Source: Caedimonas varicaedens | GTDB taxonomy: Bacteria; Pseudomonadota; Alphaproteobacteria; Caedimonadales; Caedimonadaceae | Assembly (NCBI GenBank): GCA_001192655.1 | Contig: BBVC01000060.1 | Location: forward strand, 1 to 16,937 | Direction of reading: 5' to 3' | Length of the DNA stretch: 16,937 nt | Shown here: in pieces, positions 149 through 13,565 of the stretch | Layout: every line of letters starts with the position of its first letter | Numbering within the stretch: position 1 is the stretch's first letter | The notes under the pieces: generated by a model | Databases searched by the model: none | Seen by the model: only the letters and a program-made list of their open reading frames with translations | What the model was told of the DNA's origin: nothing | Position numbers and translations under genes: made by a program

Positions 149-651
149 TGGGGACTGTACATCTAGGAAGCTTTATTTGAGAAAACACAACGCTGTCCTG
201 ACCGTGAATTGACCATGATTGATGCGACCGTTGTTTGCACTCATGCCTATTCTGCCAGATATGGAAAGGACAGTCAGGAAAAGGAAGTTTTGGGGCAGAG
301 CAGAGGCGGGTTTACGACTAAAATCCATGCCCTGGTAAGAGATACTTGGGAATTTATTTTAACGCCAGGGCAACGCCATGAAATCACCCAGACACCCACC
401 TTAATCCAAGACATGGAAACGTGAATCATTGCAGATAAAGGATACAATCGTAATTCCTGTTATTCCTTTCAAAAGAAACCGAGAACATCCCCGAAATTAT
501 GGATGAACATATCTATAAAGAATAACATCTCATCGAATGTTTCTTCGGCAAAATCAAACACTTCAGGCGAATCTTCTCAAGATTTTATAAAACAGCTTTC
601 TTCTTTCTTGGACTTCCTACACTTTGTCCCTGTATTCATAGGGTTGAGATA
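149..651 (+). pseudogene. Decayed IS5-family (IS427/IS1031-like) DDE transposase remnant
   Basis: Frame 2 reads WGLYI*EALFEK (in-frame TAG 164-166), then MIDATVV..H...GQSRGGFTTKIHALV..ILTPGQRHEITQ, a typical IS5-family core. An in-frame TGA at 422-424 is followed by IIADKGY. Frame changes are then needed to read VIPFKRNREHPRNY and DEHIYKE*HLIECFFGKIKHFRRIFSRFYKTA (TAA at 523-525). There are weaker N-terminal traces from about nt 60. No intact ORF and no recognisable terminal inverted repeats. Confidence 0.8.
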
Positions 652-683: not shown

Positions 684-2282
684 TTATTTGCCGCGCTTTC
701 CCGCGATTTGTTGAGCCCGCTTTTGGCGTGCTGCTTCTACTTTTTTCTTCTGAGCTGCAACAGCCTTTGCTTTCTGAGCTGCAACAGCCTTTGCTTTCTG
801 AGCTGCAACAGCCTTTGCTTTCTGAGCTGCAACAGCTTTTGCTTTCTGAGCTGCGACTGCTCTTGCTTTCTGAGCTGCAACAGCCTTTGCTTTCTGAGCT
901 GCAACAGCCTTTGCTTTCTGAGCTGCAACAGCTTTTGCTTTCTGAGCTGCGACTGCTCTTGCTTTCTGAGCTGCAACAGCTTTTGCTTTCTGAGCTGCGA
1001 CTGCCTTTGCTTTCTGAGCTGCAGCTCTTTGTACAGCGGCTCTTTGTATAGCAGCTTTTTGGTCAGCAGCTTTTTGCTCAGTGGCTCTTTGTATAGCAGC
1101 TTTTTGCTCAGCAGCTTTTTGCTCAGTGGCTCTTTGTACAGCGGCTCTTTGTATAGCAGCTTTTTGCTCAGTGGCTCTTTGTACAGCGGCTCTTTGTATA
1201 GCAGCTTTTTGCTCAGTGGCTCTTTGTATAGCAGCTTTTTGCTCAGTGGCTCTTTGTACAGCAGCTTTTTGGTCAGCGGCTCTTTGTACAGCAGCTTTTT
1301 GGTCAGCGGCTGCCTTTGCTTTCTGTGCCACTAATTGAGGCTTCTTTTTACGTGCCTCTTTCTCAACTCTCTCTAGTGCATTCCAGACGGGAAGCAATTT
1401 TTGTATATGTTCCCCTTCATTAAGCAAAGTTGGGTTAGTGCCAAGTGTTGTTACAAGGTTTTTTAAGTCTGCTTCAGTAGGCTTTGCTGGAAGTCTTCTA
1501 ATTATCTCTGAGAGAGCAGTTTCTTGCCCATCACTTAAAAGCCAATGCAATGTCACAATTGCTTTATATTTATTGAGATCCTGATCATCTCGATATCCAA
1601 CGTATGACCAGAAACTTGTTCCTCTATCAGGAGCTAAGCCTTGTATCTCTGGCTGGTTTCCAGAAAGAATAGTTCTCTGATCTGCGTTACTCGTGGGATG
1701 AGCAGAGAGACCAATATTTATCAATTCATTCGGTTGATGTCCCGTAAAGAATACACGATTTTCTTCACTATTAAATAAGCCTAACCTTAACTGTCTTACC
1801 TTATTATAGCTCAGCTCAGTTCCACTGGGTTCAGTTGCGTATTGAGGGCGAAAACAAACAACCGTTCCGCGCTCCCAGGGAAAATTTTGCCCTACCGCTA
1901 AGATTTTTAGGCAATCGTTTGTGACGTGGTTGAGTTCAAGTTCACGTCTGATAGAATCTGGTAACGCATTGCGAATACTCGTAGGAAAATGGACTTGTAG
2001 GGGAACATTTGCAACGCCATCATTTATTCTTTCACCATTCTGAGGATGATATGGATGAATCAAAGGTGCTTTTGGATATACTAAGGTAGAACCATAAATC
2101 CCAGAAATACCTTTATTTTCGTTATAATGCGGATCACCTTCATAGATAGATAAACGACGGGAAATAGAATACAACCCGCCTGCCATTTCTTTGGCTTCCG
2201 TTACTTCCAACGTACTGGCTTGAACAGTAAAAAGAGAAGGAAATAAGTTTACAGAACAGAAGAAAAAAATAAATAATTTCAT
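684..2282 (-). CDS. Exported protein: unassigned ~290-aa N-terminal domain plus ~215-aa Ala/Lys/Gln-rich tandem-repeat tail
   Basis: 532-codon ORF with an ATG start. The N-terminus MKLFIFFFCSVNLFPSLFTVQA looks like a Sec signal peptide. The body is paralogous to 5706..6701. The C-terminal third is built from AAQKAKAV octads and [TA][ED]QKA / A[VI]QRA pentads. Confidence 0.85.
   Translation of the reverse strand: MKLFIFFFCSVNLFPSLFTVQASTLEVTEAKEMAGGLYSISRRLSIYEGDPHYNENKGISGIYGSTLVYPKAPLIHPYHPQNGERINDGVANVPLQVHFPTSIRNALPDSIRRELELNHVTNDCLKILAVGQNFPWERGTVVCFRPQYATEPSGTELSYNKVRQLRLGLFNSEENRVFFTGHQPNELINIGLSAHPTSNADQRTILSGNQPEIQGLAPDRGTSFWSYVGYRDDQDLNKYKAIVTLHWLLSDGQETALSEIIRRLPAKPTEADLKNLVTTLGTNPTLLNEGEHIQKLLPVWNALERVEKEARKKKPQLVAQKAKAAADQKAAVQRAADQKAAVQRATEQKAAIQRATEQKAAIQRAAVQRATEQKAAIQRAAVQRATEQKAAEQKAAIQRATEQKAADQKAAIQRAAVQRAAAQKAKAVAAQKAKAVAAQKARAVAAQKAKAVAAQKAKAVAAQKAKAVAAQKARAVAAQKAKAVAAQKAKAVAAQKAKAVAAQKAKAVAAQKKKVEAARQKRAQQIAGKRGK
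750..1023. repeat. Tandem array of 11 full 24-bp units (ctgagctgcaacagcctttgcttt and 3 variants) plus a partial 12th
   Basis: Units counted directly at 750, 774, 798 ... 990. Block 774-869 is identical to 870-965, a 96-bp higher-order duplication. The array is in frame with the minus-strand CDS (8 aa per unit). Confidence 0.95.
1024..1308. repeat. Tandem array of 19 modules of 15 bp (types gctctttgta[ct]agc[ag] and gctttttg[cg]tcag[tc][ga])
   Basis: Modules counted directly and all in frame (5 aa each). A degenerate copy of the 24-bp unit follows at 1309-1331. Confidence 0.9.
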
Positions 2283-2414: not shown

Positions 2415-3743
2415 TTAATTTTGTTCTAGTATGCGAGCTTTTTTATTCCATGTAAGAGCAAAGAAAAAAGCACCAAAAGCAGAAGAAATAATAAAGAAGT
2501 TGAAACCCCAGGCCCATCCATAAAGGTGGACAATTTTTCCGACGCCAATAGCAGAGATGGCAGAGCCTGCGTAGGCAAAGCTTCCCGTCAGTCCTGTCGC
2601 CACACCTGCAGCACGTTTTGATGTCAAGTCAGCGCTTGCAATTCCTGCCATTACTTGAGGCCCATAAACCAGAAAACCTGCTAACATTAAAACAAAAGTA
2701 TCAAAGAGTTCATACCCCGCAGGAATTAGCCAAATTATCCCAATAGAAAATGCGCATCCTGTCATAAATAGAGCTCCCACAGGTCCTCGTCGCCCATCAA
2801 AAACGTGATCTGAAAGCCAGCCAGCTGTAATACCGCCCAGTAAGCCGGCAATTTCAAAAGCAGCGAGCTGTAACCCGGCAATAGCCAGACTGACGCCTTT
2901 CACTTCCTTTAAAAACATAGGTGCCCAAAAGAAAATCCCCATGCGTGGAATATAAAGGCACATTTGGGCTAAACCAACGAACCAGACGTATTTATTTGCA
3001 AGAACGATCTTCATAACTTCACGAAGGTTTATGCGTTCTTCTTCATGGGGGTCAATTTTAACGATATCACCCTTGTATTCTTCTACAGGAGGGAGCCCTA
3101 CGGTGCGTGGCGTATCCCGAAGACGATCAAAAAGAAAAATAGAAAGCAGTGCCGCAATAATTGCGGGGATCCAAAAGATTGAGCGCCAGCCGTACTGGTT
3201 ATTAATCAGGTATCCAGCGAGCAAAAAAATTGCTGCCGCACCAATTTGGTGAGAAGAAGCCCAAAAAGCCCACTTTGTGCCAAGTTCACGAGGTGCAAAC
3301 CAATGAGTAACAAGACGAGCGCAGGGTGGCCATCCCATGGACTGAAACCATGCATTGAGAATCCATACGCCTCCAAAAAATATTAAACTTTCCCCATATG
3401 CCATGCCATAGCTTGTAATGGCTGCTCCCAAAAGACCTAACGTCATAAAATAACGGGCATTAGAACGATCGCTTATATAACCATTAATGAATTTACCTAT
3501 TCCATAAGCAATTGACCACCAAGTGCCAATCCATCCAAGATCTACTTTTGTAAAGCCGAACTCTTCAGACATTCCTGGCATTGCCATGGAAAAATTTTGT
3601 CTTACAAGGTAGAAAGCAGCATATCCAATGATAGAGGCATACATAATACGCAGGCGCCAATAACGATAAGAATTTTTCTCGAGAGTAACAAGTTTAGTAT
3701 ATGTATTCAGCAAGTTTACAGAGATTGCCATTGCCATAGACAT
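2415..3743 (-). CDS. MFS transporter, organophosphate:Pi antiporter (OPA) family (GlpT/UhpC-like)
   Basis: RLRIMYASIIGYAAFYLVRQNFSMAMPGM and WSIAYGIGKFINGYISDRSNARYF match the OPA-family N-terminal signatures, and hydrophobicity suggests about 12 TM helices. The ORF is open to a TTG at 3827. The ATG at 3743 is preceded by GGAGGG 9 nt upstream and gives a GlpT-like length of ~442 aa. Confidence 0.85.
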   Translation of the reverse strand: MSMAMAISVNLLNTYTKLVTLEKNSYRYWRLRIMYASIIGYAAFYLVRQNFSMAMPGMSEEFGFTKVDLGWIGTWWSIAYGIGKFINGYISDRSNARYFMTLGLLGAAITSYGMAYGESLIFFGGVWILNAWFQSMGWPPCARLVTHWFAPRELGTKWAFWASSHQIGAAAIFLLAGYLINNQYGWRSIFWIPAIIAALLSIFLFDRLRDTPRTVGLPPVEEYKGDIVKIDPHEEERINLREVMKIVLANKYVWFVGLAQMCLYIPRMGIFFWAPMFLKEVKGVSLAIAGLQLAAFEIAGLLGGITAGWLSDHVFDGRRGPVGALFMTGCAFSIGIIWLIPAGYELFDTFVLMLAGFLVYGPQVMAGIASADLTSKRAAGVATGLTGSFAYAGSAISAIGVGKIVHLYGWAWGFNFFIISSAFGAFFFALTWNKKARILEQN

Positions 3744-3931
3744 CAGGATTGACCCTCCATTGAATCGATATTGTGACCAGATGGTATCGAAAGAATAGAA
3801 AAAAAGAAATACTTTTTTAACACTCAATTAACTAAACATACACTAAGTCCAACAATCAAAAATCTTTTTTGTTGCCAAACAAGCGAATATAAGCTACCAA
3901 ACCTTAAAAAATAAAAATTAAGGGACCTTGA

Positions 3932-4948
3932 ATGTCAGATCTTTCATTGAAAATATCTTCCAGTATTTATCCTCTCGCACGTATGCGGCGTAATAGGCGC
4001 CATGATTGGATCAGAGACCTAGTTGCAGAGACTTCCCTGGCAGCAAAAGACTTTATTTGGTCGATCTTTGTTCGTGAAAATTCTCTTTCTCCAGAAATCA
4101 GCAGTATGCCTGCCATTTATCGTTATTCTGTGGATGAACTTACAGATGCAGTGGGGATTGCCGGTGATCTAGGACTGAGGGCTATCGCTCTTTTTCCTGT
4201 TATTGAGAGCGAGAAAAGAACACATGATGCAAGGGAGCTTTTTAATTCCGGCGGAGTGCTCTATAAAGCAATTCAGGTTTTAAAGAAAAATTTTCCTCAT
4301 ATTGGTATTATCACAGACCCTGCATTGGATTCCTTTACAGACCATGGTCATGATGGCCTTTACATAAATGATGACGTCCCCAATGATGAGAGTGTTCAAG
4401 TTATTTGCCAGCATGCTCTTTTACAGGCTCAGGCGGGCGCTGATATGGTGGCTCCTTCTGACATGATGGATGGACGAGTTGGTGAAATCAGGAAGCTTCT
4501 TGATCAAAAGGGTTACCACGATGTGGGGATTATGTCTTATGCAGCAAAATACGCTTCAAATTTTTATGCCCCTTTCCGTGAAGCTTTGGGCTCTGACCAT
4601 TGTTTGAAAAAGGGTCATAAACGTACTTATCAGATGGATCCTGCCAATGTTCGCGAGGCGTTGCGAGAGGTTGCTCTTGACCTTTCAGAAGGAGCTGATT
4701 GTGTTATGATTAAACCCGGTCTTCCTTATCTGGATGTTATTCGACAAGTTAAGGATCGTTTCCTTGTTCCCACATTTGCTTTTCATGTTAGCGGAGAATA
4801 CGCTATGTTGAAAGTTGCTGCGGAAGCGGGAATGTTGTCCTATGAAAAGACATTGATAGAAATGATGACATGCTTTAAGCGGGCAGGAGCAGATGGCGTT
4901 ATTACCTATAGCGCCGTAGATATGTTGAAGCTTTTAAAACAAGGGTAA
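3932..4948 (+). CDS. hemB: Porphobilinogen synthase (delta-aminolevulinic acid dehydratase)
   Basis: RMRRNRR near the N-terminus, the metal-site motif DPALDSFTDHGHDG (Asp-rich, non-Cys type), APSDMMDGRV, MSYAAKYAS.FY.PFREA, the active-site MIKPG and HVSGEYAM. AAGGGA Shine-Dalgarno upstream. Confidence 0.95.
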   Translation: MSDLSLKISSSIYPLARMRRNRRHDWIRDLVAETSLAAKDFIWSIFVRENSLSPEISSMPAIYRYSVDELTDAVGIAGDLGLRAIALFPVIESEKRTHDARELFNSGGVLYKAIQVLKKNFPHIGIITDPALDSFTDHGHDGLYINDDVPNDESVQVICQHALLQAQAGADMVAPSDMMDGRVGEIRKLLDQKGYHDVGIMSYAAKYASNFYAPFREALGSDHCLKKGHKRTYQMDPANVREALREVALDLSEGADCVMIKPGLPYLDVIRQVKDRFLVPTFAFHVSGEYAMLKVAAEAGMLSYEKTLIEMMTCFKRAGADGVITYSAVDMLKLLKQG

Positions 4949-4952
4949 GGTA

Positions 4953-5237
4953 TTGTTTTCTTCTACTTGTATAAAATTTTTTTTAGTGACTATCGTACTG
5001 TTGCTAACCGGTTGTATTGGGTCAATTATTCTTTTTGGAGATGAAAAACCGGGTGAATTCGGTAATCTTGCAAGTGTGCCTGATCGGCCTGCTCCCAATA
5101 ATCTTCAAGATTACAAAGAAGAAATAAAACACCTTCAGCAAGAGCACAAAGAGGCAGAGGATATAAACAAAAACATTCGTGCTGATTATATACTTACCGA
5201 ACCCAAAAAAGCTTCAGAAAAAGTAAATAAACCTTAA
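4953..5237 (+). CDS. Hypothetical small lipoprotein
   Basis: ORF begins 4 nt after hemB. The N-terminus carries a lipobox-like VLLLTGC, followed by a charged, low-complexity body. Start uncertain (TTG at 4953, or the GTG further in at VTIVLL). No homology recognised. Confidence 0.45.
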   Translation: MFSSTCIKFFLVTIVLLLTGCIGSIILFGDEKPGEFGNLASVPDRPAPNNLQDYKEEIKHLQQEHKEAEDINKNIRADYILTEPKKASEKVNKP

Positions 5238-5379
5238 ATCAAATACTTACATCTCAGAGTTTTCTTCACTTTTCAATCCTGCTCAAAAAATGTCGGGTCG
5301 TGAGATAAAAATATCTAATGCGTATATTAATGCTCAGTGCTACAATCAAGCATCTGTTCATAATTAGGGGAGTTTAAGG

Positions 5380-5619
5380 ATGAAATTTCTATCAAATTCT
5401 ACTCTATCAATTTTATTTACTTTTATAATAATTGGTATAACTTCTCAAAGTGCTAAAGCAGATATTCTATGTGTAGAAGCAATAGAGACTAAAGAACAAG
5501 CCAATAAAGTGTGCAGTAAAGTTTGCAATGTTCCTTACTTTGCATGGTTTGGTGAGTGGCATAAGAAGAGTCCAATCTGTATCAATGGTTCTGCGTGTGT
5601 ATGCGAAAAAACGAATTAG
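5380..5619 (+). CDS. Small secreted cysteine-rich protein (about 52 aa mature, 6 Cys)
   Basis: AGGGGAG Shine-Dalgarno 8 nt upstream of the ATG. Signal peptide ends ..SQSAKA. The mature part DILCVEA..ANKVCSKVCNVPYFAWFGEWHKKSPICINGSACVCEK has 6 Cys. Confidence 0.6.
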   Translation: MKFLSNSTLSILFTFIIIGITSQSAKADILCVEAIETKEQANKVCSKVCNVPYFAWFGEWHKKSPICINGSACVCEKTN

Positions 5620-5705
5620 CAACCTACAAATGGCCTAGCTAGAGCAATCAGTCATCATATAATCCACGAAAATTAAAGCTGCAGGATGAGTCGGCTTTTG
5701 AGGTT

Positions 5706-6701
5706 TTATCCTTTGAAATTTAATGTTTCGTAGATGTCTTTCAATTTTTGAAGTTGTACAGTATTCTGAAAACTCTGTAATTCACTCAGGGGATCAATAA
5801 CCCATTGTTTCAAAGTATTAATATCATCATCGGGATGAGGTGCGTGATGTTCGAAAAGGTTTTTAAAATGCTCTGAAATATCAGTTCTTTGAGCATCATT
5901 TATAATCAGGTGAAGAGTGGCGATACCTTTATTTCTTTGGTTATCATCCTGATCTTCATAATCAAGGTATGACCAGAAAACTGTTCCTTTTTGCACATCA
6001 AAAAGCGTCTTTCCAGTTTTCGAATCAAACTTTTGATCCCAATCAATATGCAGATTATTCGGGGATGCAACAGTGTAACCATCTTTTCGTGAATGGGTAT
6101 GAACCTGAAATATATCGAGGTAATTGGGACGGAGTTGACCTTTGCCCTTTAAAAAAGCTAAATTAGCGTTATCGTGAAATAATCCTGCTCGTATATTTCT
6201 TTTTATATCCTTGTAGTTCTTTGTAACTGCATTAGGTTCAAGAGCATAATTGGGACGTAAACAAACGAGTTGTTTTTCGTTCCAGGGAAAATTTTGCATA
6301 CATAAAAAGATTTTTAACTGATTACTTCCAATCTCCTTCTTTTGAATGGCATCCTTGATACCTTGCGGTAATAGATCAGTCATTATTGCAGGAAGATGAG
6401 CAACCAGGGGAATGGTAGGACGTCCATCATCACAGTCAGGTCTTGATACGCCATTAATATGATAAGGATGAATGATGGGTATCTTCGGGAACTTCTCTGC
6501 GACGTAAATTTTTGTGAATCCTTTATGTTCATTATAGTGATCTTCTCCTTTATAGAGGCAGACACGATGAGAAGCTCTAATTCTTATACCTTCTTGATCT
6601 CCTTCTCGTCGAGCTTCTACAATTTCTATGCCCCCATAAGCCATAGGGCAAGAAAGAATGGTGCTTACAGAAAAAGCTAATAAATATAAAGAGAAAAACA
6701 T
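5706..6701 (-). CDS. Exported protein, tail-less paralogue of the 684..2282 N-terminal domain
   Basis: Shared blocks, copy 2 / copy 1: YKGEDHYNEHKG/YEGDPHYNENKG, IPIIHPYH/APLIHPYH, IPLVAHLP/VPLQVHFP, LKIFLCMQNFPWNEKQLVCLRPNYALEP/LKILAVGQNFPWERGTVVCFRPQYATEP, GTVFWSYLDYEDQDD/GTSFWSYVGYRDDQD, KGIATLHLII/KAIVTLHWLL. The ATG at 6701 has AAGGA upstream and starts a signal-like MFFSLYLLAFSVSTILS. The ORF is open to 6770, but that extension looks spurious. Confidence 0.8.
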   Translation of the reverse strand: MFFSLYLLAFSVSTILSCPMAYGGIEIVEARREGDQEGIRIRASHRVCLYKGEDHYNEHKGFTKIYVAEKFPKIPIIHPYHINGVSRPDCDDGRPTIPLVAHLPAIMTDLLPQGIKDAIQKKEIGSNQLKIFLCMQNFPWNEKQLVCLRPNYALEPNAVTKNYKDIKRNIRAGLFHDNANLAFLKGKGQLRPNYLDIFQVHTHSRKDGYTVASPNNLHIDWDQKFDSKTGKTLFDVQKGTVFWSYLDYEDQDDNQRNKGIATLHLIINDAQRTDISEHFKNLFEHHAPHPDDDINTLKQWVIDPLSELQSFQNTVQLQKLKDIYETLNFKG

Positions 6702-7057: not shown

Positions 7058-7999
7058 TTAATTGTTCTCCGGACAGGCCTTGGTGCTATCCATAAACAGA
7101 TATGCTTCGTTGTAAGTCTTTTTTAAATAACTCCCCAGCAGGTTGACTATTTTCAAATTTTTAAGAGAAGTGGGATAAACGTAGCACATATCGATTTCAG
7201 GCCCTTCAACATGAGGCAAAATTCTTTTTAATTTGTATTTCTCAATGAGTGAAGAGTCGTTTGATAAGCCAATAATGCCAAGTTCCGATTGTGCCATTTG
7301 AGCTAAAAACTCTACCGAATTCGTGGTCATGACGGGATTTCTTCTGCGATCTGGCGTCGTTCCTAGTCCTAATATCCAATCAGCGTTGCCAGAGTTTGCG
7401 ATAATGCTATTTTTCTTATTAAAAATAATTAATTTATGGTTATCTAAATCTTCTACACTTTCAGGAATCCCTTTATTAGAAAGGTATTTTTCACTTGCAA
7501 ATAGTTGTAATTTTCTCTTATGAAGAAATAACTGCTCTAATTTTGTTATATTAATATCGTGCGGACGTATGGCAACATCTGCTTCTTTTTTTGTTAAATC
7601 AAGGTCTTGATCATCGCAAATAATGTGAAGGATAATATCAGGATAACGCTTTGAAAAATCACTTATATACTTGAAAAGTACCGTAGAGGCATAACCATAA
7701 GTTGTCGTAATCGTAAGTTCTCCTGAGACCTGATCGGCGGTTCCTGAAATTTCATTCGTGGCCAATTCAAGCTCGACCATCATATTGCACACGCGTTCAA
7801 AAAGTATCTCGCCCTGTTTGGTCAAAATAAGACCTCGAGGATTGCGGATAAACAGTTTTGATTTGGCCTGGTGTTCCAGTTGCTGGATACTGCGCGTGAC
7901 AGAAGGCTGAAACGTACGAAGGTGTTGGGCTGCTCGCGTAATGCTTTTTTCTTTGGCGACGTAATAAAAAACCTTGAGACGATCCCACTCCAAATCCAT
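7058..7999 (-). CDS. LysR-family transcriptional regulator
   Basis: N-terminal wHTH LKVFYYVAKEKSITRAAQHLRTFQPSVTRSIQQLE...LFIRNPRGLILTKQG plus a ~200-aa co-inducer-type C-terminal domain. AAGGAA Shine-Dalgarno upstream of the ATG. Confidence 0.9.
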   Translation of the reverse strand: MDLEWDRLKVFYYVAKEKSITRAAQHLRTFQPSVTRSIQQLEHQAKSKLFIRNPRGLILTKQGEILFERVCNMMVELELATNEISGTADQVSGELTITTTYGYASTVLFKYISDFSKRYPDIILHIICDDQDLDLTKKEADVAIRPHDINITKLEQLFLHKRKLQLFASEKYLSNKGIPESVEDLDNHKLIIFNKKNSIIANSGNADWILGLGTTPDRRRNPVMTTNSVEFLAQMAQSELGIIGLSNDSSLIEKYKLKRILPHVEGPEIDMCYVYPTSLKNLKIVNLLGSYLKKTYNEAYLFMDSTKACPENN

Positions 8000-8021
8000 T
8001 AATAAAATTCCTTTATATTAT

Positions 8022-8040
8022 GATGATTATGCAAATCATC
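8022..8040. promoter_or_regulatory. Perfect 7-bp inverted repeat GATGATT-atgca-AATCATC in the lysR / NDUFA12-like divergent region
   Basis: Read directly. It lies 23-41 bp upstream of the LysR ATG. It is a candidate autoregulatory operator, although the arms do not give a canonical T-N11-A. Confidence 0.25.
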
Positions 8041-8221
8041 TCAGAGACCTATCAGACTTTTATACTATTAGTCAAGTTTTTGAGGTGATTTATCTTATAG
8101 AGATTTAACATGATCCGGAGCCTATACTTTTTCTTGTGTTTCTTTTAAAAAGCAGTTTATCCTGAAACAATGAACTTTAAGGGAATTGGCGATTTCGATG
8201 GTTTATGCACGATACTGGAGC

Positions 8222-8560
8222 ATGGAAATATTTACCTTCTTCAAAGGAAGCCTGATAGGGAAGGACCACCAGGGAAACAGATATTACCAGGAACGCTTTC
8301 TTTTTAAAAAAGCAAAACGCAAGCAACGCCGGTGGGTTATGTATCGCGGAATCATGGAAGGCTCCCGCGTTCCTGCAGAATGGTTTGGATGGTTGCATCA
8401 CTCTCTTGACGTTCCCCTGGATTCCACGCTAAAAAGCTCTTGGCAAAAGCCTCATCAGTCGAATCAGACGGGAACATCGCTTGCGTATCGCCCCTCAATG
8501 CCAAGGGAAGGAACGCAGAAATCAGTTCCAGAAGGTTATGAGCCGTGGCGTCCATCTTAA
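8222..8560 (+). CDS. NADH:ubiquinone oxidoreductase subunit NDUFA12-like protein
   Basis: GSLIGKDHQGNRYYQE....RRWVMYRG..EGSRVPAEWFGWLHHSLDVP matches the NDUFA12/B17.2 family pattern (G.D..GN.YYE, RRWV.Y, VPP.WH.WLH). The ATG at 8222 is preferred over the upstream ORF extension from 8186. Confidence 0.85.
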   Translation: MEIFTFFKGSLIGKDHQGNRYYQERFLFKKAKRKQRRWVMYRGIMEGSRVPAEWFGWLHHSLDVPLDSTLKSSWQKPHQSNQTGTSLAYRPSMPREGTQKSVPEGYEPWRPS

Positions 8561-8570
8561 GGAAAATTAT

Positions 8571-9053
8571 ATGCGTAATAATGTGATTGAAACAGTTATG
8601 GGAGCGGTCGTCCTGATGATTGCCGGCTTTTTTTTAACATTTGCCTATACAAACAGTGGTTATCGAACGTCAAATGATAGCATAAGTTATCATGCAGTAT
8701 TTGATCGTGTTGATGGTTTGGTGGTGGGAAGCGATGTTCGGATGAGCGGTGTGAAAATTGGATCAATTCGCGAAATGTCTATTGATCCAAAAACATATCT
8801 TGCCAATGTTGTGTTAGCAGTTAATTCCCAAATTAAAATTCCGAAAGATTCATCTGCAGAGATTGTCAGTGATGGTATTATGGGTGGCAAGTATCTCGCG
8901 CTGGTTCCGGGAGGGGATGATGACATGCTAAAGGCGAATGCTCAGATTGAACACACTCAATCCTCTGTCAGTCTTGAAGCTATGATAGGTCAGTTAATTT
9001 TTAGCCCTAAAAACAAAGAAGCTGAAGGTGACAAAGAAAAATCTCATCCCTGA
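8571..9053 (+). CDS. mlaD: Outer-membrane lipid asymmetry maintenance protein MlaD (MCE domain)
   Basis: N-terminal TM anchor ETVMGAVVLMIAGFFL, then an MCE-domain pattern: Y.AVFDRVDGLVVGSDVRMSGVKIGSI...A.V.L.V...IKIPKDSSAEIVSDGIMGGKYLALVPGG. ATG at 8571 with AAGGA upstream. Confidence 0.85.
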   Translation: MRNNVIETVMGAVVLMIAGFFLTFAYTNSGYRTSNDSISYHAVFDRVDGLVVGSDVRMSGVKIGSIREMSIDPKTYLANVVLAVNSQIKIPKDSSAEIVSDGIMGGKYLALVPGGDDDMLKANAQIEHTQSSVSLEAMIGQLIFSPKNKEAEGDKEKSHP

Positions 9054-9612
9054 TCTGTGGTTGGTTATAGCGATAGGCCTAATATGGGGTAAAACTGGGG
9101 GATCCAGTGATATCAGAAAGCATGACAGCTTTGAAGAAAAAGCGATCGAAGAAATTTCTTCTGTGAGCCAGGGAGTGCGTACGAATCGGGTTCTTTTGCG
9201 TGGGCTTGATAAAATTACCGCACGTGTCTCTGATTTGGAAGTGACGTTGGGAAAGGCAGTTAATTTTGGTAATCTGGAGATCACTGCCCGATTTTGTCAG
9301 AAATCTGCTCCTGAGGATCCGCCTGAATCTGTGGCATTTTTGGAAATTACAGAGCATAAACCAGGAGAAACTCCTGTCCCTGTTTTTGCAGGGTGGATGT
9401 TTTCTTCTTCTCCAACTATCTCAGCGATGGAACATCCTGTTTATGATATCTGGGTCAAGGAATGCAGAGGAGAACCTCTGAGAGAATCGTCGTCAACAAT
9501 AGTTCCTCCCCTGAGCCCTTCTCTCTCTGCTTCTCCTCTTCTTGCTCCATCATCATCTTCCCCAAGCTCTTTAGACGTTTTTAAACGGGGGTTTAAAGCA
9601 CAGCCACAATAA
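9028..9612 (+). CDS. DUF2155 domain protein with Ser/Pro-rich C-terminal extension
   Basis: LRGLDKITARVSDLEV..G..V.FGNLEITARFC.KSAPEDPPESVAFLEI......FAGWMFSSSPTISAMEHPVYDIWVKEC is the DUF2155 pattern. GTG start overlaps the mlaD end by 26 nt. The tail is SSSTIVPPLSPSLSASPLLAPSSSSPSS. Confidence 0.8.
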   Translation: MTKKNLIPDLWLVIAIGLIWGKTGGSSDIRKHDSFEEKAIEEISSVSQGVRTNRVLLRGLDKITARVSDLEVTLGKAVNFGNLEITARFCQKSAPEDPPESVAFLEITEHKPGETPVPVFAGWMFSSSPTISAMEHPVYDIWVKECRGEPLRESSSTIVPPLSPSLSASPLLAPSSSSPSSLDVFKRGFKAQPQ

Positions 9613-9760: not shown

Positions 9761-10228
9761 ATGCGTAGAATTCAAATTCTGGTACTTATCGGTTTTATAG
9801 GATTGGCAGGAATTTCTTATACTTATGCAAGTTTTAATGATGACGAGAAAGAAACTTATACGTCTCTTTCAAGCCAATCATATTACGCAACATCAACACA
9901 AATTCTGGACTATCTTGAAGATTTAAATCTGGGAGAAGAAGCGTTGGGCTATGGTAAAAGAGGAATTCTTATCATGTTTGATGAACGTTTTCCCAAGCCG
10001 ATGCATTCAGTTGAAATCGTTAACAATGGGTGGAAGTGCCTTTTTGAACGACTTCGAAGAGCGCCTTCTACACCGGAGCAAATTGGAGAATTTAATAAAA
10101 CTTTTAAATTGCATCGAAAACGTATAAAAGAGCTTGATCCTCAATTTGGTGAGGGTATTCTCGAGATGTTTTGTGAAAAGTGCAAGGTGCAAGCCTATCA
10201 TGAAAACGGGTTGAAGACAGAAGATTAG
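9761..10228 (+). CDS. Hypothetical exported protein (155 aa)
   Basis: GAGGAGA Shine-Dalgarno upstream of the ATG. Signal-like MRRIQILVLIGFIGLAGISYTYA. No family recognised. Confidence 0.55.
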   Translation: MRRIQILVLIGFIGLAGISYTYASFNDDEKETYTSLSSQSYYATSTQILDYLEDLNLGEEALGYGKRGILIMFDERFPKPMHSVEIVNNGWKCLFERLRRAPSTPEQIGEFNKTFKLHRKRIKELDPQFGEGILEMFCEKCKVQAYHENGLKTED

Positions 10229-11495: not shown

Positions 11496-12230
11496 ATGAT
11501 GTCCCATAGTGATTATATAATTTACGTTGATGAGAGTGGTGATCACAACCTTGAATCAATTGATCAAAATTTCCCTGTTTTTGTTTTGGCCTTTTGTATC
11601 TTTAATAAACAAGAATATATAGACGTAGCAGTTCCGTCTTTGAAACAACATAAGTTCAATGTCTTTGGGCATGACGCGGTTGTTTTGCATGAACGTGAAA
11701 TAAGAAAACAAGAAGGAGCGTTTTCTTCTCTCTTGATTAATAGAGTGGCACAAGATGAGTATTGTGAGCAACTCAATGATCTCATGTTAAAGACTCCCAT
11801 GAAGATTATTGCGGCGGTTATTGATAAGCATAAGCTTAAAAATAAATATATTTCTCCTGACAACCCCTATCATCTGGCTTTAGGTTTTTGCCTTGAGCGT
11901 GCTTCATATTTTCTGAGGGGGCGTGAACAGCAGGATAAATTAACTCATGTTATTGTAGAGCGCAGAGGTAAAAAAGAAGATAAAGAGCTCGAGCTGGAAT
12001 TTTATCGTATTACCACTCCGGATGAAAAACAATATAGCGGATTAAACTATAATTTAGGCGGAACGCCTTTTAAGATACATTTTATTTCAAAAGAAGCAAA
12101 TATGGCTGGAATACAACTTGCAGATTTGATTGCAAGACCGATAGGACGTTGGAGAATGAACCCTGCACAACCCAATAGGGCAATGAGTATCATCCGAGGT
12201 AAAGGCTTTGATGTAAAAACTTTTCCTTAA
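11496..12230 (+). CDS. DUF3800 domain-containing protein
   Basis: N-terminal YIIYVDESGDH and C-terminal GIQLADLIARPIG are the two conserved DUF3800 motifs as I recall them. 244 aa. Weak RBS. Confidence 0.75.
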   Translation: MMSHSDYIIYVDESGDHNLESIDQNFPVFVLAFCIFNKQEYIDVAVPSLKQHKFNVFGHDAVVLHEREIRKQEGAFSSLLINRVAQDEYCEQLNDLMLKTPMKIIAAVIDKHKLKNKYISPDNPYHLALGFCLERASYFLRGREQQDKLTHVIVERRGKKEDKELELEFYRITTPDEKQYSGLNYNLGGTPFKIHFISKEANMAGIQLADLIARPIGRWRMNPAQPNRAMSIIRGKGFDVKTFP

Positions 12231-12389: not shown

Positions 12390-13565
12390 TTACGGCTTAT
12401 TCTCTGCCTTTTCAGAAACTTTTTTTCGCGCTATTTGTATACAGGAAGGAACTTTTCCATATCCATAGCCAATTCTGAAATTAAGGGGCTGAATGGATGA
12501 GTCAGTGGCGTACATACAGGCTAGGTCAGGTTGACCATAAGCCTGGAAACTTTCTCCGTAAGGTTTGGTATAAGTGCCGTAAAGAGCGACATCCCAATGC
12601 TCTTTCAGATAGTTATAAGGGATACCTGAATCATCTTGCAAGACGAGTTCACCGCACTTCCTGACTAAATCCACGAGATGGGAAAAACCAACCTGGTGGG
12701 GCGTATAGGAAGACGATTTGAACATAACGGCGAAGGGACCTCTAGCCTCTATAAATTGCGCAAAAGGTGTAATGGCGCTGTTATGAAGGTTTTGTCGGAA
12801 ATAATAAAGCTTTTGTATCTTTTCACTTCCCGGTTTGCGAAAAGCGATTTCCACACCCTGCTTTGTGGAGGAATCAGAATTTTCAATTATTTTTCCTTCT
12901 GGCGTATAAGATACAAATTTGATATCCAGAACGTCATATCCAAGACGAGCTATAAGAGCGAGCATCGTTGGTAGAACGCCACGCTCGTAAAAGTCTCGTG
13001 ACATGTCTTTTGTGATAAAGAAACTACGCTGGAAAAGAGAATCCATGCCTTGCTCAAGTTGAGTAATAATACGATTCGTCACTTCTTCTTTTTTGAGATT
13101 TTCCAGAGTAACGATGTTTCCTATACGCTCAAGTCCTACAAGAATATATTCAGGGCTATCGGGGAAGAAAGTTAAAACGTTAAAAACGTCAGGTCCTCCC
13201 ATTGGGTAAAAAACCGGCAGTGTTATTTTTCCAAGAGCGGCTTCTCGCCATTGGATCATCGGTGTTATTCTTGCTTTTTCAACCATTGTCCATCTGAGAT
13301 TAAAAGTTGAGCGATAGTTTTGCCAGCGAGAGAATTTTTCGAAGTCTGCGCAGACTCCTTCCTGCGGGAATCCTGCCAGGAACCGCGCGACGGCAAGTGC
13401 AGAATTATCCTGTTTTGATTCAGGAGCGGGTGGTTGCTGAAGAGAGGAAGGAGCTTCAAGGATTGGGGATCCCTGGGCAATCTTCTCGTCTGTGGCTTTA
13501 AGGTATTGAGGAATGATTAAAGAGTTCAGCCCTGTCATAAAGGCAATAAAAATAACAAATCTCAT
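12390..13565 (-). CDS. Hypothetical exported protein (391 aa)
   Basis: Long ORF with an ATG start and a signal-like MRFVIFIAFMTGLNSLIIPQYLKA. A Pro/Gln-rich linker is followed by a globular body (..LPVFYPMGGPDVFNVLTFFPDSPEYILVGLE..). No family recognised. Confidence 0.7.
   Translation of the reverse strand: MRFVIFIAFMTGLNSLIIPQYLKATDEKIAQGSPILEAPSSLQQPPAPESKQDNSALAVARFLAGFPQEGVCADFEKFSRWQNYRSTFNLRWTMVEKARITPMIQWREAALGKITLPVFYPMGGPDVFNVLTFFPDSPEYILVGLERIGNIVTLENLKKEEVTNRIITQLEQGMDSLFQRSFFITKDMSRDFYERGVLPTMLALIARLGYDVLDIKFVSYTPEGKIIENSDSSTKQGVEIAFRKPGSEKIQKLYYFRQNLHNSAITPFAQFIEARGPFAVMFKSSSYTPHQVGFSHLVDLVRKCGELVLQDDSGIPYNYLKEHWDVALYGTYTKPYGESFQAYGQPDLACMYATDSSIQPLNFRIGYGYGKVPSCIQIARKKVSEKAENKP

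Follow-up and report, generated by a model that had tools for sequence, protein, structure and literature searches.

Two predicted exported paralogues of Caedimonas varicaedens share a rare, scattered domain with no match among curated families or solved structures

Caedimonas varicaedens, formerly Caedibacter varicaedens, lives in Paramecium as a kappa-killer endosymbiont, and its contig BBVC01000060.1, the whole 16,937 bp of which is the window analysed here, encodes two related proteins annotated as hypothetical in the NCBI records. What are these proteins, and what might they do for a bacterium living inside a ciliate? The first, ORF-A, is an open reading frame (ORF) of 532 residues (684..2282, minus strand; Cva_01104 / GAO98444.1, taken from the ORF list with an exact NCBI protein match) that comprises a signal peptide, a domain, a helical linker and a basic repeat tail. 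The second, ORF-B, is a divergent paralogue of 331 residues without the repeat tail (5706..6701, minus strand; Cva_01109, 100% NCBI protein match). An earlier note, made from the DNA letters, had proposed that they are exported copies of an unassigned domain, and both ORFs were found where it had placed them, on the minus strand.

The shared domain and its family

Aligned by BLASTP, ORF-A and ORF-B are 36% identical over 242 residues (E 9e-44), and because these values put the similarity far beyond chance the two are real paralogues, as had been proposed; in the alignment ORF-B retains the Q, R-P, H, S, T-L-H and D of the ORF-A core. Signal peptides were judged heuristically, from the -3/-1 rule and hydrophobicity (KD12), and both proteins show the n-h-c organisation of a Sec signal, the residues at -3 and -1 being small, in agreement with the earlier claim of Sec-type export. 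The N-terminus of ORF-A is MKLFIFFFCSVNLFPSLFTVQA followed by S, giving a predicted Sec signal peptide of residues 1-23 (2214..2282, minus strand) with a lysine at position 2, a KD12 of 2.38 and cleavage after VQA, and the close homologues of ORF-A have equivalent signal-type N-termini. The N-terminus of ORF-B is MFFSLYLLAFSVSTILSCPMAYG followed by G, with cleavage after AYG and a KD12 of 2.07, but lacks a positively charged n-region; ILSC is a possible lipobox, and ORF-B may instead be a lipoprotein.

Neither protein gave a domain match in Pfam or NCBIfam, or a sequence match in the PDB. A word-indexed search of 5.8 billion clusters returned four metagenome orthologues at 90-99% identity and one 44%-identical fragment, and the word-indexed homologue searches found only near-identical orthologues together with P0005 and P0126 (P numbers denote family members, L numbers genomic loci). 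As these searches gave so little, the family came to light only when 1.84 billion cluster representatives were searched exhaustively with a HMMER profile. Relatives number 262 at a threshold of E<=1e-3, of which 132 reach E<=1e-10 and 15 reach E<=1e-30. The matches span profile positions ~60-270 (150 proteins among the matches listed), and from these matches, column conservation and AlphaFold2 the shared unit is ~215 residues, ORF-A residues 58-272 (1467..2111, minus strand), rather than the ~290 residues first suggested. The corresponding core of ORF-B, by alignment to this unit, is approximately residues 61-290 (5832..6521, minus strand). The C-terminal helices of ORF-A (residues 273-316; 1335..1466, minus strand), seen in the models, are kept only in the closest relatives. 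Elsewhere the domain is N-terminal, in the middle or C-terminal, and sometimes occurs twice, in proteins of 250-1868 residues. We conclude that it defines a real, rare and widely scattered family.

The family could not be assigned to any other. No Pfam model covered the core in 74 full-length members, and 42 trimmed domains searched against Pfam at E<=10 gave only nine singleton chance matches; no Pfam lyase matched among either set. An isolated match of one member to DUF4468 (TBP-like fold; E 0.04) is at chance level, and a "DUF8354 (faint)" match on P0083 was not reproduced. Three family profiles found nothing significant in the PDB. Thus the core domain falls above the curated cut-off of no Pfam or NCBIfam family and resembles no solved PDB chain in sequence or, by Foldseek, in fold, which bears out the remark of the earlier note that it could match the motifs to no family.

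Column conservation was counted in a 145-sequence alignment, using ORF-A numbering. The conserved positions are Tyr63 (124/145), Pro70 and Pro73 (130/145 and 129/145), His76 (105/145), Tyr78 (133/145), Arg85 (92/145), Pro100 (117/145), Leu107-Pro108 (121/145 and 135/145), Gln132 (141/145), Pro135-Trp136 (117/145 and 101/145), Arg145-Pro146 (121/145 and 137/145), His195 (133/145), Ser207 (134/145), Gly215 (119/145), Phe224 and Ser226 (110/145 and 111/145), Thr244-Leu245-His246 (122/145, 120/145 and 141/145) and Asp251 (105/145). The polar set Tyr63, His76, Tyr78, Gln132, Arg145, His195, Ser207, Ser226, Thr244, His246 and Asp251 is kept in ~70-97% of members despite an overall identity of ~25% across the family, and both window proteins retain every top-conserved residue.

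Many of the islands picked out by eye in the two window proteins hold family-wide, namely Q132, P135/W136, R145-P146, H195, S207, F224/S226 and T244-L245-H246, whereas the HYNE.KG island is confined, like the C-terminal helices, to the closest subfamily. The HPYH motif stands for its first histidine, His76, but the second is variable (Asn in 53 sequences, His in 39). The cysteine of VC.RP, thought to be invariant, is not: position 143 is Leu in 85/145 and Cys in 17/145, and no Cys column is conserved across the family. At position 147 the family commonly has His (RPHYW), where ORF-A has Gln and ORF-B has Asn. The suggestion of an enzyme- or metal-like site therefore survives in part, since the conserved polar residues do look like an enzyme or ligand site but a Cys-based or Cys-ligated one is excluded. 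A Cys-dependent enzyme, such as a papain-like, transglutaminase or deamidase effector, was likewise considered and ruled out, there being no invariant Cys and mostly Leu at position 143.

With the 42-sequence alignment, AlphaFold2 modelled ORF-A residues 45-290 with a pLDDT of 93.9 and a pTM of 0.90 (five sequences only gave a pLDDT of 48 and an unusable model). The prediction is of a compact alpha+beta unit at high confidence, in which an extended, Pro-rich N-terminal segment accompanies a strand, two helices, about seven mostly long antiparallel strands and then two or three helices; the ORF-A models place helices at 270-282 and 292-312. Judged from the hairpin register, Phe224, Ser226, Thr244 and His246 would lie on one face of a beta-hairpin. 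Compared by Foldseek with 350,542 PDB chains, the model had no match at E<=1e-3 (best E 0.02, TM score <=0.2); the weak, non-significant matches were pilins and Ig-like sandwiches, with no jelly-roll, beta-helix or toroid fold among those listed. The order of elements is similar to the helix-grip layout of SRPBCC, START and Bet v 1 proteins (beta, alpha, alpha, antiparallel strands, C-terminal alpha), but the 50 PDB matches listed by Foldseek include no START-like chain and there is no Pfam match to that group. As modelled, the fold would be one not yet described, without a PDB counterpart by Foldseek.

A Foldseek search of BFVD gave four confident matches to giant-virus proteins, all uncharacterised (E 1.5e-11 to 6e-6, probability 1.00, TM 0.48-0.61 over ~260-277 columns): A0A7D3UQV8 (E 1.5e-11, TM 0.61) and A0A7D3UUQ9 (E 3.6e-7) of Fadolivirus, A0A4P6VP83 of Mimivirus LCMiAC02 (E 3.7e-6) and A0A1V0SAX7 of Catovirus (E 6.0e-6). 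These Klosneuvirinae-type proteins are alike in predicted fold, but share only 8-18% sequence identity with the Caedimonas domain, and they were not recovered by sequence scans of IMG/VR or phage records. Klosneuvirinae-type viruses infect protists, just as the bacterial carriers of the domain are protist-associated.

Distribution, evolution and the repeat tail

Contrary to the earlier note, the family is not specific to one lineage; at least 262 cluster representatives are spread over Holosporales-type symbionts, Holophagaceae, Acidimicrobiia, Silvanigrellaceae and gammaproteobacterial contigs. Its sources include Ca. Bealeia paramacronuclearis (another Paramecium symbiont), a Silvanigrellaceae metagenome-assembled genome (MAG) and 'Proteobacteria' MAGs. 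One subfamily pattern, run over 185,579 species genomes, found five Holophagaceae/Holophaga loci, two in Acidimicrobiia and one in an uncultured alphaproteobacterium, the subfamily alignments yielding in all 8 GTDB loci and 4 metagenome loci; several genomes have two copies. Sequence scans of plasmid, phage and IMG/VR collections gave no matches, so nothing links the family to a plasmid- or phage-borne killer trait.

Partner domains in the 74 full-length members are IPT/TIG (15/74), ankyrin repeats (5/74), He_PIG (4/74), NHL (2/74), RibLong (2/74), Kelch (1/74) and a sulfotransferase (1/74), and in several of the giant members no domain could be recognised. A hydrophobic N-terminal segment is present in 75/156 members and 14 are lipobox-like, about half of the members having a signal peptide or lipobox; others are signal-less and long, some fused to ankyrin repeats. 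One signal-less subfamily lies on low-GC contigs that carry MutH or SurA-KsgA, genes that indicate Gammaproteobacteria, and adjoins Sel1-repeat genes, and another signal-less member lies among giant ankyrin and kinase genes.

Two features of the signal-less members are recorded here in their own right. In two metagenome loci a ~585-residue Sel1-repeat protein convergently adjoins the member (L021, 11362-13116; L022, 11263-13029), the second locus also carrying MutH, which points to a gammaproteobacterial, Legionellales-like genome. In addition, among the giant members inspected for N-terminal motifs (P0067, P0082, P0083, P0106, P0128 and P0148), several signal-less giants of 1000-1900 residues share an ESSM-type motif ~30-45 residues from the start and another group has an 'L..F(L)..PF' motif; either may be a secretion or chaperone-binding signal.

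Within the Caedimonas lineage, the 368-kb contig of a relative carries hemB, a major facilitator superfamily (MFS) gene, P0007 and then P0009 in tandem; P0007 (642 residues) is 51% identical to ORF-A, P0009 has 528 residues, and the same MFS-ORF-A gene order recurs at the P0007, P0003 and P0001 loci. This synteny argues that the location of ORF-A is ancestral and not a recent insertion, contradicting the suggestion of recent acquisition next to insertion sequence (IS) debris. In a neighbour-joining tree ORF-A groups with P0007 and then P0009, while ORF-B branches outside, which dates the A/B duplication as old. Compared with strain L012, in which ORF-A is 94% identical, the ratio of non-synonymous to synonymous substitution rates is 0.50 for the ORF-A domain, against 0.10 for MFS, 0.28 for ALAD and 0.10 for LysR; ORF-A is therefore a real gene under constraint, but one that evolves fast relative to its neighbours. 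The L012 orthologue of ORF-B (3740-4361; also L013, 1229-1850) has lost residues 38-115 and is 76% identical over the remainder, which by its sequence makes it a pseudogene, and ORF-B-like fragments in other assemblies (P0015, P0035 and P0049, the last on 14 contigs) suggest that such decay is widespread. Because of the broken orthologue and the recurring fragments, ORF-B is dispensable in some strains.

The tail of ORF-A (687..1334, minus strand) is encoded by tandem DNA repeats and comprises 216 residues, 40% Ala, 17% Lys and 16% Gln, with a net charge of +42. Tandem Repeats Finder delimits arrays at 748..1023 (24 bp x 11.5, 92% match) and 1021..1311 (30/45 bp, x 6.5-9.7). Orthologues that are 90-99% identical (P0001-P0004) have 354-441 residues, compared with 532 here, and the difference is located in the repeat tail, suggesting length variation driven by slippage. 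Analogous AQQKAKA-type tails in P0007 and P0009 argue that the tail is a selected feature. It resembles TolA domain II and histone-H1-like tails in being long, free of Pro and Gly, Ala/Lys-rich, repetitive and strongly basic, a compositional likeness from which an extended helix or the binding of an anionic polymer would be expected. There is, however, no detectable homology to either, and its repeat units, 8, 10 and 15 residues long, occur in this lineage alone; the tail gave only a compositional match to Extensin_1 (E 0.002) in Pfam and nothing in the PDB.

Genomic context in the window and elsewhere

The genes of the window run in the order ORF-A (minus), MFS (minus), hemB (plus), two small exported ORFs (plus), ORF-B (minus) and LysR (minus), followed by housekeeping genes. 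Upstream of ORF-A is the MFS transporter, of GlpT/UhpC type (2415..3827, minus strand; Pfam MFS_1, E 1.2e-52), and between the paralogues is hemB, encoding ALAD (3932..4948, plus strand; Pfam ALAD, E 4e-125, and synteny). ORF-B starts at the ATG at 6701, with a GAAGGA ribosome-binding site 9 nt upstream. Promoter and terminator candidates were no more frequent than expected from shuffled sequence. The earlier description of the DNA as AT-richer holds only marginally, the GC content of the ORF-A domain (0.397) equalling the window mean whereas that of ORF-B is 0.362, and GC at third codon positions being 0.28-0.29 in both paralogues against 0.33-0.40 in most other window genes. The adjoining IS debris rests on ORF 209..424 near the contig end, which has a sub-threshold DDE_Tnp_1 match (E 0.051) and is probably the remains of an IS at which the assembly broke; this sub-threshold match gives no evidence that the fragment mobilised ORF-A.

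The two small ORFs encode a 94-residue lipoprotein-like protein (4953..5237) and a 79-residue Cys-rich protein with a signal peptide (5380..5619). In the related strain L012 a 203-residue PLDc_2 (phospholipase D / Nuc-like) gene (4847-5458) lies between hemB and the ORF-B remnant, and from the comparison of 4953..5619 with L012 the hemB-to-ORF-B interval is a small variable islet of exported proteins. Further along the window, signal-peptide-like N-termini without a Pfam match are found in two uncharacterised proteins of 391 (12390..13565, minus strand) and 155 residues (9761..10228, plus strand), and a DUF3800 protein (E 4.6e-20; 11496..12230, plus strand) is encoded in slightly AT-richer DNA (GC 0.369) between RNase HII and the 391-residue exported ORF.

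Elsewhere, surface-polysaccharide clusters enclose three members, each from a different subfamily and each transcribed in the direction of its cluster. The neighbours of P0008 are Wzm/Wzt, UDP-glucose dehydrogenase, DegT, an MBOAT and a GDS-motif protein; P0010, which is 42% identical to ORF-A, adjoins a sulfatase and is upstream of GT2 and Wzm/Wzt; and P0078 follows PglD, GT4, AsnB, an MBOAT and a GDS-motif protein and precedes Wzy_C. The pair formed by an AlgI-like MBOAT and a ~370-residue membrane-anchored GDS-motif protein (L015, 11376-13952; L018, 4134-6738) directly adjoins the family gene in two unrelated glycan clusters, and the two MBOATs are 34% identical.

Neighbours related to haem are likewise found repeatedly: hemB in the window, hemH in L009, genes for cytochrome b561 in L001 and L010 (close to P0126 and next to P0106) and genes for cytochrome b in L004. 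The L009 locus, from an uncultured alphaproteobacterium, has two tandem paralogues (4379..6684 and 7611..9368) with near-identical signal peptides, adjoining hemH, a truA split into two ORFs and a 585-residue gene that fuses TssB (VipA) and TssC (VipB) sheath domains. Most other loci showed nothing suggestive and no operon partner. Because seed-based tblastn for glycan and haem genes over 23 loci gave no new co-occurrence, neither theme is general, and both are leads rather than results.

Possible function of the domain

What, then, would such a domain do? We tentatively favour, with somewhat less than even confidence, a new exported catalytic or ligand-binding domain directed at the host or at a surface glycan, with the tail as a basic spacer or tether. 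A catalytic or tight-binding role is suggested because near-invariant Gln, Arg, His, Ser and His residues persist at ~25% identity, because the architectures are extracytoplasmic or effector-like, and because the distribution is patchy, multi-copy and fast-evolving over protist-associated organisms and giant viruses. The lack of any invariant acidic residue or Cys suggests either that residues of the His/Tyr type serve as acid and base on an anionic substrate or that a cofactor is ligated by His.

On such a mechanism, ORF-A and ORF-B would be two anciently diverged copies exported through their predicted Sec signals, and the conserved polar residues would line one pocket. There an anionic substrate (a sugar acid, or a sulfate or phosphate ester) would undergo acid/base chemistry, either metal-independent or His-ligated; alternatively, such a ligand would be bound tightly. 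Once beyond the bacterial cytoplasm, the exported protein would have the host (Paramecium) or a surface glycan as its target; the helical Ala/Lys/Gln tail, with its charge of +42, would be a length-variable spacer or an electrostatic tether to an anionic surface, and ORF-B the tail-less, faster-decaying copy.

Several points weigh against this proposal. The family has no invariant acidic residue or classical catalytic motif, and its conserved His, Tyr, Arg and Ser fit ligand binding equally well, for example of a porphyrin or a sugar. The genomic contexts are heterogeneous, most loci having no operon partner, and a Sec signal alone does not take a protein through the outer membrane into a host.

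The same residues could form the binding site or structural core of a non-catalytic binding or adhesin module, displayed on the surface or secreted, with a host or environmental glycan or protein as its ligand. We consider this unlikely, though well worth weighing: in Holophagaceae lipoproteins, stalks of TIG, He_PIG or RibLong carry the domain at their end, a classic adhesin architecture, the family is multi-copy, fast-evolving and tied to variable repeats, and the weak Foldseek matches to pilins and Ig-like sandwiches, although not significant, point the same way. However, Gln, His, Ser and His that are 92-97% invariant at ~25% identity would be unusual in an adhesin, the binding residues of which usually vary, and fusion to ankyrin repeats, themselves binding modules, suggests that the domain supplies some other activity. 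Rather unlikely, too, is a periplasmic enzyme or accessory factor that works on the bacterium's own surface polysaccharide and not on the host, by modification, as an O-acetylation accessory in an AlgF-like position, or by lyase- or epimerase-type chemistry on uronic-acid glycans. The three co-directional glycan clusters (carrying Wzm/Wzt, GT2/GT4, UDP-glucose dehydrogenase, DegT, AsnB-like and Wzy_C genes) and the member fused to a sulfotransferase argue for it, as does the MBOAT and GDS-motif pair, beside which the family gene is placed at two loci as in algI-algJ-algF, with a size (~215 residues) and export like those of the accessory proteins AlgF and WssG. Lyases and epimerases that work without a metal typically have a Gln/Arg/His/Tyr set (PL families), with which the residue types here agree as a resemblance only, and glycan-cluster contexts number 3 of ~14. 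Yet the window, which has no MBOAT or glycan genes, its syntenic relatives and eleven other loci lack such neighbours, giant-virus homologues and ankyrin fusions are unlike envelope housekeeping, and there is no Pfam match to AlgF or any lyase family and no Foldseek match to solved AlgF.

A haem connection is suggested by the neighbours, in that hemB lies between the paralogues and recurs in the syntenic relative, hemH is divergently adjacent to the L009 tandem pair, and the cytochrome genes listed above stand near other members. On this reading the exported domain would bind or scavenge a tetrapyrrole (haem), liganded by His/His or His/Tyr and with its propionates in the grip of Arg, Ser and Gln, and the conserved His, Tyr, Arg and Ser would suit such a role. 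We nevertheless regard it as improbable: the neighbours differ in gene and position, co-transcription with the family gene has been shown for none of them, neither sequence nor Foldseek reveals similarity to HasA, NEAT or HmuY, and the association was noticed post hoc, without a control frequency. Least credible of all is a divergent tube protein of a type VI secretion system (T6SS). Such a protein, Hcp (TssD), is a ~160-residue beta-barrel without a signal peptide, encoded in a T6SS cluster. The idea would fill a gap, as the T6SS of Holosporineae has no recognisable tube protein (PMC11909080), the top PDB profile match, itself non-significant, was Bacteroides Hcp3 (E 1.3), and the L009 pair is ~1 kb from the TssB-TssC gene. 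We rejected it on the Sec signal peptide, which is incompatible with cytoplasmic tube assembly, the absence of any T6SS_HCP Pfam match, the failure of other profiles to reproduce the Hcp3 match and the lack of an Hcp among the 50 Foldseek PDB matches listed, despite many solved Hcp structures; moreover, the window has no T6SS genes, and the domain is ~215 residues long and sits inside proteins of up to 1868. An effector or envelope enzyme remains the best reading, though at somewhat less than even confidence.

A more specific and rather speculative version, which we think has only a minor chance of being correct, holds that the domain is a new enzyme fold acting as a host-directed effector, exchanged among inhabitants of protists, namely Holosporales symbionts, Legionellales-like gammaproteobacteria and Klosneuvirinae giant viruses. 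With the same doubt, the Holosporales copies would be Sec-exported and the signal-less, ankyrin-fused Legionellales-like copies probably substrates of a type IV secretion system. Indirect support for effectors of specialised secretion (type IV or type III) comes from signal-less, Pfam-empty giant proteins with ankyrin repeats, among the neighbours of which are Sel1, Ank and kinase genes on gammaproteobacterial contigs. The review PMC11909080 describes the toxin as unidentified and secreted effectors as uncharacterised. If the exchange proposal were true, the domain would be one of the unidentified secreted factors by which Caedimonas manipulates or harms Paramecium, while the basic tail would direct ORF-A to nucleic acid or membranes of the host. 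The family provides a testable candidate for symbiont action on ciliate hosts, with a confident structural model and residues to mutate, and its distribution connects endosymbionts of protists with other host-associated bacteria and with giant viruses. Should the domain prove to be an enzyme, the repertoire of effectors and glycan enzymes would gain a new fold and chemistry, and at least 262 'hypothetical protein' clusters would receive a name.

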